The notes under the pieces: generated by a model
Told to the model about the DNA's origin: nothing
Seen by the model: the letters and a program-made list of their open reading frames with translations, nothing else
Databases searched by the model: none
Shown here: positions 6,429-27,886 of the stretch, piece after piece
How the letters are laid out: each line of letters begins with the position of its first letter
How positions within the stretch are numbered: position 1 is the first letter of the stretch
Made by a program: the position numbers and the translations under genes
From: Candidatus Actinomarina sp.
GTDB taxonomy: Bacteria > Actinomycetota > Acidimicrobiia > Actinomarinales > Actinomarinaceae
DNA length: 46,503 nucleotides
Direction: 5' to 3'
NCBI GenBank assembly: GCA_041234785.1
Contig: JBEROH010000030.1
Location: 1 to 46,503, forward strand

Positions 6429-7556
6429 ATGGTTCAAAGTGATTTATTGTTAAAACATCTCTCAACAGTGTACGATCCTGAACTTGGGGTCAACATTGTA
6501 GATTTAGGCATGGTAAAAAATGTGGTGCACAATAAGAACAGTGTCGATATTAAGTTAGCATTAACCATTGCGAACTGTCCAATGAGAAATCAAATTGAAC
6601 AAGAGATAAAAAGAAAGTTATTACTTATTGAAAACGTATCAACTGTCAATATTGAGGTAGTAGCTATGGATCAAAAAGATAGGTCTTCTGTTATGGAGAA
6701 AGCAAGAAAAAAAGCTAGAGACAATGCACAGCCTACAAAAATTGATCCTAAAACTAGAGTCATTGCAATAGGTAGTGGAAAAGGTGGTGTCGGCAAATCA
6801 ACCATTTCTGCAAACGTCGCTGTTGGATTATCAGACGCCGGATACAAAACTGGTTTATTAGATGCAGATATCTGGGGTTTCTCAATTCCAAGGCTTCTTG
6901 GCATATCGGGAAGAATTAAAGCCAATGATGAGAAGCTCATGATTCCATATTCTCACAATAACTTAAAAGTCATTTCTACTGGATTGATTACAGAAAATGA
7001 AGACACAGCTTTAATGTGGAGAGGTCTAATGTTAAGCAAAGCTTTAGAGCAATTCTTAACAAATGTTGAATGGGGTGATTTGGATTATTTAATAATTGAT
7101 TTACCTCCTGGAACAGGTGACATTCAAATGGCATTAAGTCGTCTTCTTCCTCAAGCTGAATTAATTGTTGTCACAACACCACAACGAATGGCCCAAAAGG
7201 TAGCAACGAGAGTTGCGGACATGGCAAAACGTAGTTTTATACCTTTATTAGGTGTTATAGAAAATATGTCTTATTTTCAATCAAAATCTGGAGAACAGTT
7301 TAATATTTTTGGATCTGGTGGTGGAGATGCTCTCGCTAATCAGTTTGGTTTATCTATACTTGGAAAAATTCCAATTAGTGAAGATACAAATGATATCGCA
7401 GATGACGGAATTCCTTTGATCTTGCAAGAAAAAGACTCTCCAACAAAACAAGCTTTAATTCAACTAACAAAGAATATTGCTGAGCAGCTACCTCCTATTA
7501 AAGATGAAACATGTACTGGTCGGTTAGCTAAGGTTTTTGAAGAGCTTTCAAAATAA
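6429..7556 (+). CDS. mrp: Mrp/ApbC/NBP35 ATPase with N-terminal DUF59 (FeS assembly) domain
   Basis: VYDPELGVNIVDLGMV..T...CP (DUF59); SGKGGVGKST, LDADIWG, WRG, DLPPGTGD and ENMS motifs. Confidence 0.93.
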   Translation: MVQSDLLLKHLSTVYDPELGVNIVDLGMVKNVVHNKNSVDIKLALTIANCPMRNQIEQEIKRKLLLIENVSTVNIEVVAMDQKDRSSVMEKARKKARDNAQPTKIDPKTRVIAIGSGKGGVGKSTISANVAVGLSDAGYKTGLLDADIWGFSIPRLLGISGRIKANDEKLMIPYSHNNLKVISTGLITENEDTALMWRGLMLSKALEQFLTNVEWGDLDYLIIDLPPGTGDIQMALSRLLPQAELIVVTTPQRMAQKVATRVADMAKRSFIPLLGVIENMSYFQSKSGEQFNIFGSGGGDALANQFGLSILGKIPISEDTNDIADDGIPLILQEKDSPTKQALIQLTKNIAEQLPPIKDETCTGRLAKVFEELSK

Positions 7557-8851
7557 TGAATTCGATTTCTGTTAACGATTTAGCTGAATCCTCCAGTCTT
7601 GAACTTCCAAGAGAGATTAAGCTTTTTCTTGCAAAAAAAGTTCTCGCAGAAACTAGAGATGGAGATGAAGCACTAAAGCAATTCAACCAGGTTGTAAACA
7701 AGTTAAGTATCGATAAACAGAAAAAAGTTATTAACGCTACCGGAACATTGCTCCACACAAACCTTGGTAGAGCCCCAAGCAACTTATTATTTCCCGGTGG
7801 ATACACAAATGTAGAATTTGATTTACTCGAATCTAAACGAGGGATGAGAAGTATTTACCTCAAGACTAGTATGAAAACTCTCTTGAATACAGAGGATGTG
7901 ACGTTTGTAAACAATAATGCCTCTTCTCTGTTTATTACTCTTGCAAGTTTAAAAAAAATTCACAATAAAAGTCACGTAATTGTCTCTCGAGGTGAAATTA
8001 TTGAAATCGGAGGTTCTTATAGACTTCCTGAAATTATTAATGAAACAGGTTTAGTCCTCATTGAAGTTGGTACCACCAATAAGACCCGTATAAAAGATTA
8101 TGAAGATGCACTAAAAAAATATGATAATGCGGTGATATTAAAGGTACATAGGTCAAATTTTTCAATTACAGGATTTACAGAAGAAACAACAATTGCTCAA
8201 CTAAAGGAATTAAAAGATTCATATCAAACAATGCTCATCCACGACTTAGGTAGTGGACTTGTAATAGACAGGGGCTTTCTAAGTAAATATGATTTACATA
8301 TTTTTGACACTGAACCAAGAGTGCAAGATTCGCTTGATTCTGGATCAGACTTGGTCTTATTTTCAGGAGATAAATTGTTTGGATCGGTTCAGTCGGGAAT
8401 CATTGCAGGAAATAAAAATATAATTGAATCAATTAATGGGTTCAGCTTGTATAGAACGTATCGCTGTTCTCCAATAATTTTATTTGAACTTCAAGAAACG
8501 ACAGATAAGTACTTATCAAAGAATGAAATAGAGATTCCATTTTGGCATCTAGTATCAACACCATACAGCTCTTTAGAAGAAAGACTATCAACGATTGTTT
8601 CAAATTGTAATGTGCAGTATGACATCGTTAGGGGCGAAAGTGTAATTGGAGGAGGGACTTTACCTGATAAAACCTTAGAATCTCCATTACTCATTTTTAA
8701 CGAAAATTCTGTAAAAGATTTAATGTTTAAATTTTTAAATAATGTGTTTCCAATAATTCCTCGCATTTTTAATGGAAAATTAAGTCTCGATATTAGAAGT
8801 GTTTCAATTGATGAGGATAAATATATAGCAGACTTCATAACATCTTTATGA
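7556..8851 (+). CDS. selA: L-seryl-tRNA(Sec) selenium transferase
   Basis: VINATG.LLHTNLGRAP, VNNNA, VSRGE.IEIGGS.R, EVGTTN.T, LKVH.SNF, DLGSG and FSGDKL.G..Q.G (PLP Lys) motifs. Confidence 0.97.
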   Translation: MNSISVNDLAESSSLELPREIKLFLAKKVLAETRDGDEALKQFNQVVNKLSIDKQKKVINATGTLLHTNLGRAPSNLLFPGGYTNVEFDLLESKRGMRSIYLKTSMKTLLNTEDVTFVNNNASSLFITLASLKKIHNKSHVIVSRGEIIEIGGSYRLPEIINETGLVLIEVGTTNKTRIKDYEDALKKYDNAVILKVHRSNFSITGFTEETTIAQLKELKDSYQTMLIHDLGSGLVIDRGFLSKYDLHIFDTEPRVQDSLDSGSDLVLFSGDKLFGSVQSGIIAGNKNIIESINGFSLYRTYRCSPIILFELQETTDKYLSKNEIEIPFWHLVSTPYSSLEERLSTIVSNCNVQYDIVRGESVIGGGTLPDKTLESPLLIFNENSVKDLMFKFLNNVFPIIPRIFNGKLSLDIRSVSIDEDKYIADFITSL

Positions 8852-10527
8852 CCGTTTTAGCTACAGCAGGACATGTAGATCACGGTAAGTCAACTTTAGT
8901 AAACTTTCTAACTGGTCAAGAGACTGATAGGTTAGATGAAGAAAAAAAACGTGGTCTCACTATCAATCTTGGATTCACATATTTTGAATATCAAAATGAA
9001 TTTGTATCAATTGTCGATGTACCTGGTCACAAAGATTACTTTAAAAACACAGTCGCAGGCTTTTCAAATGTTGATGCTGTGTTGTTCTGTATTGATGCTG
9101 TGCAAGGATGGTCTCAACAATCAGAAGAACACTTTCAAGCATTGATAAACCTTGATATTAAAAATATATTTTTTGTATTTACAAAAATCGATAAAATGGA
9201 AAACCGTAATCATATTGACAAATTAAAAACAAAAATTAGTAACTACACTACTTTCAATTTTGAAATTCTTGAATACAGTTCTATAAAAAGCGACAGGAAT
9301 GAAGTACAAATTAAAATTATTAACTATCTAAAAAATATAATAAAACCTTCATACCCACCATGTTTATGGGTTGATCGAACGTTTAATATTGATGGTGTCG
9401 GTAAAGTTGTAACCGGTACTGCAAGTAAAATTTTCAATTTAGAAAATATTTTTGTAGATTGTGACCAAACAAAATTGGACATTAGAGAAGTTCAAAATGT
9501 AAGTAATAAAATTAAGTCAATTTCCTCTTCAAGCAGATTGGCAATTTCATTTAAAAAAAATAATGAATCTCTACCCGAACGAGGTTCGCTTCTAACAAAT
9601 CAATTAAACCAACGATATAGATATGTTTTTATAGAGGAAAACGATGCAAGTGATGAAATAACTACTAAGGGCACTATAAGAATTTATATGGGGACAGGAA
9701 ATTGTATTGTTAAAAATATTCAGTATTTAAATATTGAACAAAAAAAAGTTCTACTTATTGAATTCAATAATTATCAAGTATTAATTCCAAATCAAACCAT
9801 CCTCCTACACAATCTTTCTACAAACGAATTTTATGGAGGTAAAATTATTGAAGCCTCTAACAATTACTTTCATATAAAAAAACTTGTTAATGATTCTAAA
9901 AATGAAAATTTTCTTTCAATTGATGATTTACATATATTTTATGAAAAAGAGAATCCTTTGAATATCAAACATTTTGTAGAAATTCATAACAAACTAATAC
10001 CTAAAAAGAAATTTGAAAATATATCGATTGATATTTTAAATAATCTTGAAAAAGTAAACTCTATTGGAGTTTATGAATATCTTTTTAAAGTTCATTTTGT
10101 TGAAACTGAGTTTGTTGAAGACCTTTGTAAGGCAATCGCAGATATAAAACTATCTAACAATCAAATTTTTCTAGATAAAAATAGTAAAGTGAATGAAACA
10201 TTATATTTAAAAATAAATAGCCTTCTTTCCCAAGATTTAAACGTAAACAAAGTAGATTTAAGCAACTTTAATAAAAAAGATATTAAGACATTATTTATGA
10301 ATGAATATTTGTATAGAATTGATAGCAATTTATTAATCTCTAGAGAACATAAAAATAAACTACTCCAAGTAATTGAAGAGCTACCTAATCAATTTTCAGT
10401 CAGTGATTTTAAAAACCTTACAAATCTATCACGAAAATACTCAATACCTTACTTAGAATTTTTAGACAAATTAAACATTACATCAAAAATTGATAGTGAC
10501 GGTACACGAAAAAAACTAAAAAAATAA
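8848..10527 (+). CDS. selB: Selenocysteine-specific elongation factor
   Basis: TAGHVDHGKSTL, TDRL.EEK.RG.TI.LGF, DVPGH, Q..EH, TKID; C-terminal winged helix LSRKYSIP.LEFLD; ATGA overlap with selA. Confidence 0.95.
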   Translation: MTVLATAGHVDHGKSTLVNFLTGQETDRLDEEKKRGLTINLGFTYFEYQNEFVSIVDVPGHKDYFKNTVAGFSNVDAVLFCIDAVQGWSQQSEEHFQALINLDIKNIFFVFTKIDKMENRNHIDKLKTKISNYTTFNFEILEYSSIKSDRNEVQIKIINYLKNIIKPSYPPCLWVDRTFNIDGVGKVVTGTASKIFNLENIFVDCDQTKLDIREVQNVSNKIKSISSSSRLAISFKKNNESLPERGSLLTNQLNQRYRYVFIEENDASDEITTKGTIRIYMGTGNCIVKNIQYLNIEQKKVLLIEFNNYQVLIPNQTILLHNLSTNEFYGGKIIEASNNYFHIKKLVNDSKNENFLSIDDLHIFYEKENPLNIKHFVEIHNKLIPKKKFENISIDILNNLEKVNSIGVYEYLFKVHFVETEFVEDLCKAIADIKLSNNQIFLDKNSKVNETLYLKINSLLSQDLNVNKVDLSNFNKKDIKTLFMNEYLYRIDSNLLISREHKNKLLQVIEELPNQFSVSDFKNLTNLSRKYSIPYLEFLDKLNITSKIDSDGTRKKLKK

Positions 10528-24149: not shown

Positions 24150-25370
24150 ATGGACAATTTAATTAGTACTGAATTAACTTCTCTTTCTTTTATGTTGGGG
24201 TTGCTAGTAGGAGTATATTTTATTGTTAGGGTGATTTTATTCCCTGTTGTTAAAAAAATTGCCAAAAAAACTTCTACGCTTATGGACGACCTTTTTGTAG
24301 ATAAAAAATTTTTAAATAGACTTTCTTATTTAATTGTATTTGTTTTTTTTCATATACTTTCTTCCACACCTCTCTTTGATTTAGAAGTTTTAAATTATTT
24401 AGTCGTTGAAAGAATTCTAAACTCTATATTTGCGCTCGTAGTTGGAGCAACGATTCTTGAAGTATTAACAGTGTTAAACAATGTATCTTCTCAAATTGAA
24501 TTTTTAAAGAACAAGCCTATAAAAGGTTATGTCCAAATTGTAAAAATTATTATCACCTCATTCGTTTTTATAATAATTTTTGCAATAATTACTGGCCAAC
24601 CTGTTGCATATTACATAAGTGGTCTTGGTGCTTTAACGGCTGTTTTACTTCTAATTTTTCAAGATACAATTTTGTCTTTCGTGGCATCCGTCCAAATTAC
24701 TCAAAATGACATAATCAAGGTAGGCGACTGGATTGAAGTTCGAGAGTTTGGTGCGGACGGTGATGTGATAGACATTGCCCTACATACGATCAAAGTACAA
24801 AACTGGGATAAAACTGTCACTACAATTCCAACCTCAAAAATTGTTAGTAGCTCTGTTAAAAACTGGAGAGGAATGTCAGAATATGGAGGACGTAGAATCA
24901 AACGATCAATAGCTATTGACATTTCAAGCGTAAAGTTTTTATCACAAGCTGAAATTTTAGAATTAGAAAAACTAGCTCCTCTTAAAAATTACATTGCCCA
25001 AAAAAAGATTGAACTTGAGGAATATAACAAATCAATAGAGCAATCAGCTCATATCTTCGAATTCAGAAAGTTAACAAACATTGGTACTTACAGAGCTTAT
25101 ATTGAAAATTATTTAAAACAGAATGAAAATCTAAACACCGAAACTATGACTTGTTTAGTAAGACAACTCTCATCAACTCCTGAAGGAGTACCAATTGAAA
25201 TTTATACCTTTACAAATACAACTGAGTGGGTCGCTTATGAGAAAATACAGTCAGATATTTTTGACCACTTATTTGCAATCCTTCCAAAATTTGGATTAAG
25301 AGTTTTTCAAAATGGATTGTTAGAAGCTGTGGCTATGAAAAATCTTCCTTTTAATCAATTTGATGAGTAA
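24150..25370 (+). CDS. Mechanosensitive channel, MscS family (YbdG/MscM-like)
   Basis: GLGA.TAVLLL.FQDTIL..VAS.Q, GDWIE...GADG.V.DI.L.T.KVQNWDKT and NWRGM...GGRRIKRS motifs. Confidence 0.93.
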   Translation: MDNLISTELTSLSFMLGLLVGVYFIVRVILFPVVKKIAKKTSTLMDDLFVDKKFLNRLSYLIVFVFFHILSSTPLFDLEVLNYLVVERILNSIFALVVGATILEVLTVLNNVSSQIEFLKNKPIKGYVQIVKIIITSFVFIIIFAIITGQPVAYYISGLGALTAVLLLIFQDTILSFVASVQITQNDIIKVGDWIEVREFGADGDVIDIALHTIKVQNWDKTVTTIPTSKIVSSSVKNWRGMSEYGGRRIKRSIAIDISSVKFLSQAEILELEKLAPLKNYIAQKKIELEEYNKSIEQSAHIFEFRKLTNIGTYRAYIENYLKQNENLNTETMTCLVRQLSSTPEGVPIEIYTFTNTTEWVAYEKIQSDIFDHLFAILPKFGLRVFQNGLLEAVAMKNLPFNQFDE

Positions 25371-26841
25371 AAAATTTTTTAAAAAATATTAACATCAATG
25401 CAATTAATAAACTCATATAGTTGAAATAGTTTCCATACCTACTGTAAAAAGTTACTGAATCGACAGGATAAATAGTTTCTGTTAAAAGAGATGTGGTGAA
25501 CAAGTCTGTTTTTGATATTACGTTTCCTAAATTATTAATGAATGCAGACTTTCCTGTTATAGCAGCATGAACAATTGGTCTATTATTTGATATTGCGTTA
25601 GCTTGCGACATTAATATAAACTGATCAGACATACCACTCTCTCCATAGCTCGCTTGGTTGGTAAGAATAATAATTACTTCAGCACCTTGATTGACACTTT
25701 TTCTAATGTATCTTTGAAAAGAGCCTTCAAAAGAAATGACTGAAGCAATCCTGACCTCATCAAGATACAAAATTTTCTCTCTGTCTCCCCTAATCATGTC
25801 TCTAGGCACTTGTGCCAAAGGAGGAATCCAATCTAAATATTTTCTGAATGGAATATACTCACCAAATGGTACTGGGTGTTGTTTAAGATATTGATCAATG
25901 ACAAGACCTTGCGTATTGATAAATACACCATAATTTTCGAAATTTTCATTGCCTATTGGCCTATCCCCTCCAATCAGAAAATATGAATCGAGTCGTTTTG
26001 CTTCAGTTTGAATTTCACCTAAAACTTCTTTGTGAACTAACGGATCATTATTAAAGCCAGTAGAACTTTCTGGCCAAACAACTAAGTTAACATTTTGATT
26101 AATTTCTTTTGTTAGGTTTAAGTGACTTTCATAAATTCTTTGTCTCTCGTTGGAACATTTATTTTTTGTTCCAGGACAAGGACTGTTGCCTTGAACAATT
26201 GAAATTGTCAAACCCTCTTTTGTAGCATTACTCTTTTCAAAATTAAATAAGTCAACAGTGGAAATTAATAATGGAATTGAGATCAAAAAAACATAGCCTG
26301 TAAAACTTTTTAAAATTCTACCCTTTTTAGATTCTGAAATGAACAACACAAGAAATAAAACAAAGCTTTGAATTATTAATGATAACCCTGACGGCCCATA
26401 AGTTTTAAACAAATTCGGTAATAAGTATGTGCTATATTCTGAATAACTTGTTAACAGCACAGTTGAACTAAATCCCCAAGGAAAACCTCCGAAAGGAAAA
26501 TATGCTCGCATTAAATCAAAAGAACTTATCACACCTATTAGTACAAAAAAATGATTCTGAAATTTATTTTTGAAAAAAACGAAAATAACTCCAAAAACAC
26601 CGTAGGTTAAACCCATTAGGATTGTTAACGGTATCCAAGCCTCATATCCAATTGACTTAATACCAAGCAAAATCACACTATAAGCAATGCTTCCAAAAAT
26701 AAATCCAGAACTAAAGCCATTTTTACTTAAAAGTAATGCTCGGTAAAAAAAATACAATGCTGGAAAGATTAGATACCATAAATTAAATGGAGGGAAGCTT
26801 AAAAAGTAAAGAGCCCCTGCTAAAACAGCACTTATTTTCAT
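25351..26841 (-). CDS. lnt: Apolipoprotein N-acyltransferase (catalytic Cys replaced by Ser)
   Basis: LSFPP, PFGGFPWG, VQGN, VVWPES, Y.K.HPVPFGEYIP, ISFE (normally ICYE/ICFE), and TG.SA motifs. Confidence 0.92.
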   Translation of the reverse strand: MKISAVLAGALYFLSFPPFNLWYLIFPALYFFYRALLLSKNGFSSGFIFGSIAYSVILLGIKSIGYEAWIPLTILMGLTYGVFGVIFVFFKNKFQNHFFVLIGVISSFDLMRAYFPFGGFPWGFSSTVLLTSYSEYSTYLLPNLFKTYGPSGLSLIIQSFVLFLVLFISESKKGRILKSFTGYVFLISIPLLISTVDLFNFEKSNATKEGLTISIVQGNSPCPGTKNKCSNERQRIYESHLNLTKEINQNVNLVVWPESSTGFNNDPLVHKEVLGEIQTEAKRLDSYFLIGGDRPIGNENFENYGVFINTQGLVIDQYLKQHPVPFGEYIPFRKYLDWIPPLAQVPRDMIRGDREKILYLDEVRIASVISFEGSFQRYIRKSVNQGAEVIIILTNQASYGESGMSDQFILMSQANAISNNRPIVHAAITGKSAFINNLGNVISKTDLFTTSLLTETIYPVDSVTFYSRYGNYFNYMSLLIALMLIFFKKFFTHQID

Positions 26842-26877: not shown

Positions 26878-27612
26878 TTAATTTATATTTCTTAGAATTA
26901 CGATAATTCCTGAAAAAATTGAAAAATAAGTTACAGCATTCGCAATAAAATTGTCTGAAAATCTTGAAAAAATTTTACTCGAAGTAGCAAAACCAAATAA
27001 GACAAAAGGTACAAAAACTATAAATAATCTTAGATGATCAAATGTCAGGTTATTGTTAAGAACTAGTAGTACTAAAGTTATTATTATTCCGATACTAAAA
27101 ACACTATTTAATGATGGTCGGAACTCGTCTGATTTTGTCTTTCTATAAAGAAGTGCAACAGGTGGTCCTCCAACAGCAGCTACCATTCCAAATATTCCAG
27201 AAAATGTTCCAGCTAGAAAAGAATTAATAGTCGTTTTGTTTATAACCCAACCAAAAAAAGAAGCTAGCCCGCCTATTAGTACGATGATTCCAACTAGTAA
27301 GGATAGGTATTTTTGGCTTAAGTTTATTAGTAAAAATAGACCAATTGGTCCACCAATTAATCGACCAACTAAAAGAGGTTTAACTTTAGAAAGATTTACT
27401 TTGTCTCTTTCTCTATAAAAAACTTTAAGAGCTAAGGGTAAAGCTAATAGAGATAGAAGTTGGGGAACAAGATTTGGATTTAATTGTACAACAATAGGTG
27501 AAGCGATAACTGCAAAACCAAAGCCAAGCACTCCTTGTACAGCAGAGCTAATAAAAAATAAAAATGCTAGAAATAGAAGTTCATTAATTGATAAATCAAA
27601 AGGTATTGTCAA
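26878..27612 (-). CDS. Sulfite exporter TauE/SafE family membrane protein
   Basis: S.VQG..GFG.A....P and G..SG..G.....GGPP repeats; about 8 TM segments; TTG start overlaps the upstream TGA (TTGA). Confidence 0.9.
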   Translation of the reverse strand: MTIPFDLSINELLFLAFLFFISSAVQGVLGFGFAVIASPIVVQLNPNLVPQLLSLLALPLALKVFYRERDKVNLSKVKPLLVGRLIGGPIGLFLLINLSQKYLSLLVGIIVLIGGLASFFGWVINKTTINSFLAGTFSGIFGMVAAVGGPPVALLYRKTKSDEFRPSLNSVFSIGIIITLVLLVLNNNLTFDHLRLFIVFVPFVLFGFATSSKIFSRFSDNFIANAVTYFSIFSGIIVILRNIN

Positions 27613-27845
27613 CTAAGAGCTTTATCTAATAAACTTAGAATTTCCCCATCTTCAGCATGTCTACCATTTGCAGTTTTGGAATATAGCAATGTGTTATTCA
27701 AATACAATTCAAAAACTCCACCTGAACCAGGAATCAAATTAATAGAACTAACAGCCTTGCCATACTTTTCTAGAATGTCTTCAACCGTACTAACTGCACG
27801 GGGTGTGTAGTTTCAAACTACACAAAATTCGAGTTTGATATCCAT
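27609..27845 (-). CDS. Rdx (SelT/SelW/SelH) family selenoprotein, 78 aa, Sec at codon 11 (TGA 27815-27813)
   Basis: Not in ORF track. Reads MDIKLEFCVVUNYTPRAVSTVEDILEKYGKAVSSINLIPGSGGVFELYLNNTLLYSKTANGRHAEDGEILSLLDKALS*: CxxU, LIPGSGGVFE and LYSK..GR are Rdx hallmarks; downstream SECIS-like hairpin; selA and selB are in the window. Confidence 0.93.
27785..27801 (-). promoter_or_regulatory. Bacterial SECIS element
   Basis: CCGUGC-AGUUA-GUACGG: 17-nt hairpin (6-bp stem, GU-containing loop) starting after an 11-nt spacer from the UGA, the geometry of the E. coli fdhF minimal SECIS. Confidence 0.8.
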
Positions 27846-27886
27846 AATAGAAATACTATCATTAAAAAAATTAAAGGAGATTCAAA

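Follow-up and report, generated by a model that had tools for sequence, protein, structure and literature searches.

A TauE/SafE permease gene overlapping an Rdx/SelW-like selenoprotein gene in Candidatus Actinomarina, and its possible dependence on selenocysteine decoding

Introduction

If the first gene of an overlapping pair carries a selenocysteine (Sec) codon ten codons from its 5′ end, does the synthesis of the second protein depend on the decoding of that codon? The question is raised by a locus of Candidatus Actinomarina sp. (Actinomycetota; Acidimicrobiia; Actinomarinales), found in the 46,503 nucleotides (nt) of contig JBEROH010000030.1 (assembly GCA_041234785.1, positions 1 to 46,503), which are called the window here. 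In this locus the stop codon of a small Rdx/SelW-like selenoprotein gene (hereafter Rdx) overlaps the start of a gene for a TauE/SafE membrane permease (hereafter TauE). A preliminary description made from the letters of the window had proposed that TauE is produced mainly by ribosomes that read the UGA of Rdx as Sec and then re-initiate, and that the pair is thereby a regulator-free selenium sensor. Our data show that Rdx and TauE form a conserved two-gene cassette in this genus, in which TauE synthesis may depend on Sec decoding by way of termination-reinitiation, a reading to which we give a probability of about 0.5. The sequence statements of the preliminary description and their coordinates all hold, including the TTGA at 27612-27609 and the extent of the pair (26878..27845). 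The main features, all on the minus strand, are:

27609..27845, minus strand: Rdx/SelW-like selenoprotein gene, 78 codons including the Sec codon, TGA stop included, motif CVVU
27813..27815, minus strand: Sec UGA, codon 11 of Rdx, TGA at this place in 59/59 loci and aligned with a cysteine (Cys) of the family
26878..27612, minus strand: TauE/SafE (TSUP) membrane permease gene, 244 codons, stop included
27609..27612, minus strand: TTGA junction, the TauE TTG start (27612-27610) lying over the Rdx TGA stop, in 59/59 loci

The two gene products

The Rdx open reading frame (ORF) begins with an ATG (27845-27843), has one in-frame TGA at codon 11 (27815-27813) and ends with a TGA stop (27611-27609). 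With the internal TGA translated as Sec (U), the product starts MDIKLEFCVVU and contains a CxxU motif, C8-V-V-U11. It belongs to the Rdx / SelT-SelW-SelH family, with matches to the profiles PF10262 (E 4e-17, 62.6 bits for a cut-off of 22.6) and TIGR02174 (49.3 bits for a cut-off of 34.2), and stays below the cut-off of the Campylobacter equivalog NF041051 (76 and 88 bits, respectively). Sequence matches in the Protein Data Bank (PDB) are the SelW-related proteins 2fa8, 2ojl, 3dex and 2p0g, and these are independent of the structural model, a single-sequence AlphaFold2 prediction of low confidence (pLDDT 65.6). This model has a thioredoxin-like order of elements (beta-alpha-beta-beta-beta-alpha), and its fold matches are 2fa8, 2obk, 2oka, 3dex and 2p0g (TM 0.69-0.73), followed by thioredoxins. 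Its length of about 80 amino acids (aa), the CxxU near the N-terminus and the thioredoxin-like model are all as in the bacterial SelW-like/Rdx proteins (PF10262; 2fa8, 2p0g), one of which, selW of Campylobacter jejuni, was shown to be translated according to the available text of 10.1101/2022.11.09.515450. Among 58 aligned family members the Sec column holds C, or W where a TGA had been read through, and C8 is invariant; two of the Rdx alignments were too diverse for a pattern search. Since 37 of the 78 columns are invariant in the alignment of the genus, Rdx is a conserved protein and not a disposable leader.

The TauE product matches PF01925 (E 4.1e-19, 69.6 bits for a cut-off of 32.6) over residues 16-236, which cover positions 2-235 of the 237 in the profile, and a crude scan places hydrophobic segments over its whole length. 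Both family assignments of the preliminary description are thus borne out. The full-length Pfam match and the size agree with those of TauE/SafE sulfite exporters (about 240-250 aa), and relatives in the databases are called at 244 aa; by contrast, identity to any relative outside the clade is at most 39%, and no sulfonate-degradation genes adjoin TauE in the window. TauE had no match in NCBIfam and no relative in a PDB sequence search. The family name makes the transport of sulfite or a related anion plausible. Within TauE, over its conserved LIGGPIG codons, lies a terminator-like hairpin with a T run (27339-27362, minus strand), the sole such site in the 1.4 kb scanned, where about 0.5 would be expected by chance.

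Conservation of the overlapping junction

The comparison within the genus comprised 59 loci, namely those of 58 genomes and a second copy on contig C11 of the same assembly as the window; all 59 operon sequences are distinct, and as all are kin within one genus their counts overstate independence. With the TauE protein as query an orthologue was found in 22 of 24 congeners, and the Rdx protein found a match in 57 of 63, each with one in-frame TGA. The order has one other genus, represented by a single genome, and this gave no Rdx match; a search for related loci with the TauE protein alone gave no relative. The ATG of Rdx, the Sec codon at position 11, the length of 78 codons, the TGA stop and the TTGA overlap recur at all 59 loci, one of which was mis-registered by tblastn and then checked by eye, while identity to the window goes down to 52% for TauE and 62% for Rdx. 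We judge this conservation of the junction to be beyond chance.

Several observations indicate where TauE begins. In the window the TauE frame has a stop, TAG, directly ahead of the TTG, and translation could begin no earlier than this TTG. The following candidate in the frame (ATG, GTG or TTG) is the GTG of codon 28, and an ATG is not met until far inside the protein. At 32 of the 59 loci the first 40 codons contain no further candidate of these three kinds. No variation occurs among 35 orthologues at residues P4, F5 and L7, which argues for translation from the TTG, and we take this codon to be the true start of TauE. The 17 nt before it (ttagataaagctcttag) contain no GGAG, GAGG or AGGA, so that the weak TTG lacking a Shine-Dalgarno (SD) motif, and the lack of a nearby in-frame ATG, are as the preliminary description had them. 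The last Rdx codon is AGT, GGT, GAT or GTT, and its residue varies while its third base, which is the T of the TTG, is constant. At 16 of these loci (14 with GGT and two with GTT) an A or a G would be synonymous in Rdx and would turn the TauE start into ATG or GTG, and neither was seen. The start therefore appears to be held weak by selection, with the caveat that the genomes are kin.

Three irregular cases within the genus deserve mention. The second cassette of the assembly (G000:C11:6840-7804) was considered as a paralogue and rejected, as 1300 nt of it match the locus in the genome of another species (L030) at 99.6% identity; contig C11 is probably a congener contig binned into this genome. 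In one of the 58 genomes (L167, G454:C5) TauE has one inserted base at nucleotide 210 and loses its frame after 77 codons, the result of a sequencing error or the mark of a pseudogene. Finally, Rdx, TauE and selA were not found in the genomes G010, G431 and G433, and a joint loss of the cassette with the Sec trait was rejected because all three keep selD with its in-frame TGA. G010 also lacks the flanking M3 peptidase gene, and an unassembled or variable region is the likelier cause of the gap.

Selenocysteine decoding

The early TGA lies in the loop of one predicted RNA hairpin and shortly before another, and the genes for Sec synthesis and insertion are encoded in the same genome, partly in the window itself:

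27804..27824, minus strand: perfect hairpin of 9 bp with the Sec UGA as its triloop, from folding and the genus alignment
27785..27801, minus strand: SECIS-like hairpin CCGUGC-AGUUA-GUACGG, from folding, with a 6-bp stem and a 5-nt loop that holds GU
7556-8851, plus strand: selA, 355.9 bits, above the cut-off, inside the window
8848-10527, plus strand: divergent selB-like gene, positions 2-572 of the 581 of model TIGR00475, 201.9 bits, below the cut-off of 242.25

The first hairpin (UGUGUAGUU-UGA-AACUACACA) lies 21 nt from the probable 5′ end of the mRNA, and the 61-nt stretch that contains it has a z-score of -3.4, none of 200 shuffled sequences being equally stable. Across 58 orthologous sequences, 31 of them distinct, pairing in its stem holds for 93.5% of cells and includes one compensatory change from GC to AU; one species (L040) has the stem disrupted, and the Marinimicrobia homologue has no such hairpin. 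The second hairpin resembles a Sec insertion sequence (SECIS) and begins 14 nt past the first base of the UGA (11 nt past the last). Its stem is paired in 100% of cells, and its basal pair occurs as UA (18), CG (12) and GC (1). In bacterial SECIS elements the rule is that the G of the loop lies 16-37 nt from the UGA. We take the second, covarying hairpin (27801-27785) as the SECIS; no SECIS or other relevant Rfam match was found at Rdx. The SECIS of selD differs from it in shape, so there is no shared loop motif that could serve as a second test.

The genome itself is small (911,159 bases in 55 contigs, 31.6% G+C, 72% complete). It holds a selD above the cut-off, which has its own in-frame TGA, and a tRNA-Sec (70.8 bits, above the cut-off), besides the selA and the selB-like gene, which share a four-base ATGA overlap and lie about 17 kb from the cassette. 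Together with the constant TGA at codon 11, this supports the reading of that codon as a genuine Sec codon, as had been proposed.

Start signals and the proposed coupling

The promoter region of Rdx has the following element:

27853..27861, minus strand: extended -10-like element TGATAGTAT, with the hexamer TAGTAT at 27858-27853, 7 nt before the Rdx ATG

A hexamer of the form TANNNT ends 6-7 nt before the Rdx ATG at all 59 loci, with the TGn extension at 42, and an SD-like 4-mer between -20 and -4 of that ATG was found at none of them. This suggests an Rdx-TauE mRNA that is leaderless or nearly so, on which the 5′ AUG of Rdx would be the only obvious entry for ribosomes, and thereby supports coupling.

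The mechanism that we propose is the following. Ribosomes would enter a bicistronic leaderless mRNA at the 5′ AUG of Rdx, insert Sec at the UGA of codon 11 with the aid of the downstream hairpin and complete the 78-codon frame, then terminate at the invariant UUGA and re-initiate on the UUG of TauE. Where Sec-tRNA(Sec) is wanting, ribosomes would end at codon 11, about 200 nt short of the UUG. The synthesis of TauE would thus be capped by that of full-length Rdx and dependent on it, and would be lower when Sec-tRNA(Sec) is scarce; Rho-dependent polarity on the untranslated RNA may strengthen the drop, in the way that polarity was shown to act on fdhF(Sec) of Treponema primitia (PMC3892789). 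If TauE is made by termination-reinitiation, its synthesis depends on Sec decoding. We read such a dependence as the built-in result of producing a membrane partner together with a selenoprotein at a low fixed ratio, and not as a proven dedicated sensor. Coupling of this kind has precedent in overlapping pairs of Haloferax and E. coli, where, for 13 of 14 pairs, translation of the second gene ceased once the first had been given an early stop codon, according to the available text of Huber et al. 2019 (PMC6728339).

The explanation that survives best beside this one is an ordinary operon, in which the UUG of TauE is used de novo, independently of an SD motif, on unstructured AU-rich RNA or from an internal promoter in Rdx, and in which the overlap is a matter of genome compaction; on this reading TauE would hardly respond to selenium supply. 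We regard it as possible and rather doubtful. The start signals of the genome bear on both sides of the question, and their counts come from crude ORF-based gene calls, the anti-SD being unread as the 3′ end of the 16S rRNA lies outside the assembly. An SD-like motif occurs at 33 of 145 clean intergenic starts and is missing at the other 112 (77%); as starts lacking it are the norm here, the AU-rich junction may also be open to de novo initiation. However, the SD-less intergenic genes mostly start with ATG and look leaderless, a -10-like hexamer standing 5-9 nt before the start in 63 of the 145 compared with 12% at random coding positions. Intergenic TTG starts, on the other hand, are enriched for a strong SD (9/19, against 7/111 for ATG), and for this reason the SD-less TTG of TauE looks dependent on coupling. 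UUG is moreover a poor start codon on leaderless messages in E. coli and mycobacteria, which also counts against the ordinary operon, as does the constancy of the TTG where a synonymous change would give ATG or GTG. The start signals of this organism therefore look unusual and seem to fall into three classes: ATG starts of leaderless type, TTG starts aided by an SD, and overlaps, to the last of which the TauE start belongs. In 885 crudely called ORFs the four-base overlaps number 81 ATGA, 14 TTGA and 6 GTGA. The junction type is therefore ordinary for this genome, and the only special point is the upstream Sec UGA ten codons from the 5′ end.

The points that weigh against coupling, besides the abundance of SD-less intergenic starts and the kinship of the loci, are these. 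Overlaps lacking an SD-like 4-mer are routine (8/14 TTGA and 57/81 ATGA). The fold of the 101 nt around the junction is not unusually stable (z -1.2), so the TauE start is not visibly masked. A possible internal promoter, the TANNNT hexamer TAAGTT, lies 20-25 nt before the TTG, although the consensus scan gave no promoter-like site inside Rdx on the minus strand. Contigs from RNA libraries do span the junction (27531-27826 and 27565-27787; two metatranscriptomic runs, both from one study) and lend weak support to co-transcription, but such contigs cannot prove a single transcript, and RNA libraries can carry DNA; the runs X2 and X4 gave short or low-depth pieces only, and stretches that they leave uncovered carry no information. 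A Rho score that passes the threshold in 23 of 26 congeners speaks for polarity, but no Rho was found in the 72%-complete genome of the window. Finally, in the available text of PMC6728339, removal of the SD motif in E. coli mostly weakened re-initiation, and bioBF, one of the 14 overlapping pairs tested, initiated de novo despite a weak SD. The gene identities, the Sec codon with its machinery, the conserved overlap and the lack of an SD motif are established by these data; the leaderless start, re-initiation as the sole route to TauE and the dependence on selenium we infer.

Genomic context and distribution of the pair

Downstream of TauE, at a distance of 36 nt, lies the following gene:

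25351..26841, minus strand: Lnt, apolipoprotein N-acyltransferase, Pfam LNT_N and CN_hydrolase

Lnt has its own -10-like element (TAACAT) 7 nt before its ATG, and is probably a separate transcription unit and a conserved neighbour. In the genus it follows TauE at 24 of 24 loci, and an M3 peptidase gene precedes Rdx at 15 of the 24. In the sister genus (L203, G470:C45:1-4303) the Lnt and M3 peptidase genes stand divergently, 20 nt apart, with nothing between them, and neither selA nor selD was found in that genome (71% complete). This locus marks the exact site that the cassette occupies in Candidatus Actinomarina, and as the sister genus has no cassette between the two flanking genes, Rdx and TauE behave as one inserted unit.

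The preliminary description had called for a survey of the pairing across genomes. Within the genus the pairing holds at every one of the 59 loci, and beyond it was not found, which counts against any wider claim. The Rdx gene is present in 94 of 401 genomes of the phylum, a tally that includes 11 flagged as unpublished, and most of the matches have an in-frame TGA. The best 30 of these loci were taken, and after removal of five from unpublished genomes there was no TauE among 87 ORFs neighbouring Rdx at the 25 left. A further 80 loci with Sec-containing Rdx came from other phyla, including Marinimicrobia/Fidelibacterota, Planctomycetota, Chloroflexota and Acidobacteriota; a single query retrieved them all, and they have the motifs of that query in common. 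No TauE was found among their 109 flanking ORFs of 160-420 aa, 61 longer ORFs lying outside the scan. The neighbours at other Rdx loci are unrelated genes (LemA, DAHP synthase, malate synthase, PP2C, homoserine dehydrogenase and others). In the reverse direction, tblastn found no Rdx at seven class-level TauE loci. Taken together, these comparisons indicate that Rdx-TauE is a real, conserved two-gene cassette specific to the Candidatus Actinomarina lineage. The families, the Sec codon, the overlap and the SD-less TTG of the preliminary description all stand, then, and the strong conservation of the pairing within the genus supports it; against its wider claim, the pairing was not found at the loci surveyed outside the genus.

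Two observations were made on Rdx genes of other phyla. In Marinimicrobia/Fidelibacterota the Sec-containing Rdx gene has a clear SD at 11 loci (L078:2700-3494, L079, L082-L084, L087, L088, L090, L092, L093 and L096), at most of which an ORF of 243-275 aa with no Pfam match at E 1e-6 overlaps its 3′ end; that of L078, the sole copy read, is not a polytopic membrane protein. Also, an Rdx homologue in a metagenome-assembled genome of Bacillota (L111:1469-1684) has two TGA codons, one at either position of the motif (..EY*TS*GY..), possibly a UxxU form or a sequencing artefact.

Less likely readings: a selenium sensor or a misread gene

The second alternative goes further than coupling and is the one that the preliminary description had favoured: the pair would be an evolved, regulator-free selenium sensor, in which the early UGA acts as a checkpoint resembling a leader peptide and switches a selenite/sulfite-type transporter on only in the presence of selenium. 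All that favours coupling favours it as well, and so do the position of the UGA so near the 5′ end, the TTG kept weak and the family annotation of TauE as a TSUP member, a plausible carrier of sulfur or selenium oxyanions. The sister genus, in whose genome neither selA nor selD was found, lacks the whole cassette at the same site, which points the same way. Nevertheless we consider it improbable. The CxxU lies at residues 8-13, with TGA at the Sec position, in 80 of the 80 loci of other phyla, and likewise in the family alignment, so that the early Sec position is a trait of the family and not an adaptation in this genus. Rdx is conserved as a protein would be, and the pairing was met nowhere else among the loci surveyed. 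The genus also offers no Cys variant of Rdx for comparison, all 58 matches having TGA. On the physiological side, dissolved selenium in the ocean is 0.5-3 nmol/L, a range quoted in the available text of the preprint 10.64898/2026.04.03.716425, and an exporter against excess therefore seems unneeded, while an importer that required selenium for its own synthesis would lock itself out. In its strongest form, with a functional selenoprotein ORF doubling as a leader cistron that senses Sec-tRNA, the UGA of codon 11 as the sole gate to an SD-less UUG on a leaderless mRNA, and the whole as a protein-free selenium switch for a TSUP transporter handling selenium or sulfur species together with a SelW-like protein, the proposal is, in our estimate, unlikely to be right.

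A mis-annotated gene, with TauE fused to Rdx by programmed frameshifting or begun at another start, is suggested by the frames lying one base apart at the junction and was rejected as highly improbable, as 43 of 58 aligned junctions have a stop codon (TAG in 33, TGA in 10) directly before the TTG, read in frame with TauE, CTTAGTTGA has no slippery heptamer, and TauE covers PF01925 from position 2 and has relatives called at its own length.

Relation to known systems

In the gene fdhF(Sec) of T. primitia, selenium raises the transcript downstream of the UGA with no dedicated regulator, according to the available text of Matson et al. 2013 (PMC3892789). As there, the Sec UGA of Rdx would itself decide whether ribosomes go on; in T. 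primitia, however, the effect was measured on the transcript and within one gene, whereas in the present case it would act on a separate overlapping cistron, by a proposed re-initiation. The pairs with -4/-1 overlaps of Huber et al. 2019 share the co-directional ATGA-type overlap, as far as the available text describes them, and differ in that the premature stop of Rdx is natural and conditional and that its downstream UUG has no SD and lies on a seemingly leaderless mRNA. In leader-peptide attenuation, as in the trp and his operons, the supply of one charged tRNA is sensed through the translation of a short ORF, and the expression of the genes behind it is set accordingly. Unlike those leaders, Rdx is a conserved functional protein, and no alternative terminator and antiterminator structures were found.

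The preliminary description knew of no account of such an arrangement. Our literature search found no paper linking a SelW-like protein with TauE and none treating Sec decoding as the gate for a re-initiated downstream cistron, and it gave T. primitia as the only case of selenium acting through coupling. A 2025 review of coupling (PMC12548453) has no occurrence of the word 'selenocysteine', and neither a 2015 comparative study of selenium genes nor a 2026 review of selenoproteomes mentions TauE/DUF81. The claim of novelty is accordingly narrowed, since regulator-free selenium control behind a Sec UGA was already known: both halves of the mechanism have been described, and their combination, Sec recoding with a re-initiated cistron, appears to be new as far as this search goes.

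The preprint 'Actinomarina, resolved' (10.64898/2026.04.03.716425) reports, in its available text, that the Sec machinery is universal in this group, that its selB is divergent and that its selD contains Sec, and the sub-threshold score of the selB-like gene in the window agrees with the remark on selB. Its most abundant predicted selenoprotein family is 78 aa long and is called uncharacterized there, with no occurrence of SelW, Rdx or TauE in that text. Judging from length and lineage this family is very probably the Rdx gene described here, and the present analysis assigns it to a family. The same text lists a selenoprotein group matching K07090, which is TauE/SafE in KEGG according to the available part of 10.1101/2024.12.10.627767. 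We suspect that this group is the Rdx ORF, which gene callers miss, credited to the adjoining TauE gene by way of the 4-nt overlap, because the preprint linked its candidates to called genes that overlap them on the same strand.

Significance

If the dependence of TauE on Sec decoding is real, the cassette would be a minimal and regulator-free tie of a membrane transporter to selenium status, made by Sec recoding and re-initiation only, and the downstream cistrons of any operon that begins with a Sec-encoding gene may be selenium-conditional. It would also give a first clue to the function of bacterial SelW-like proteins, by way of a transporter as obligatory partner in a very abundant marine lineage.

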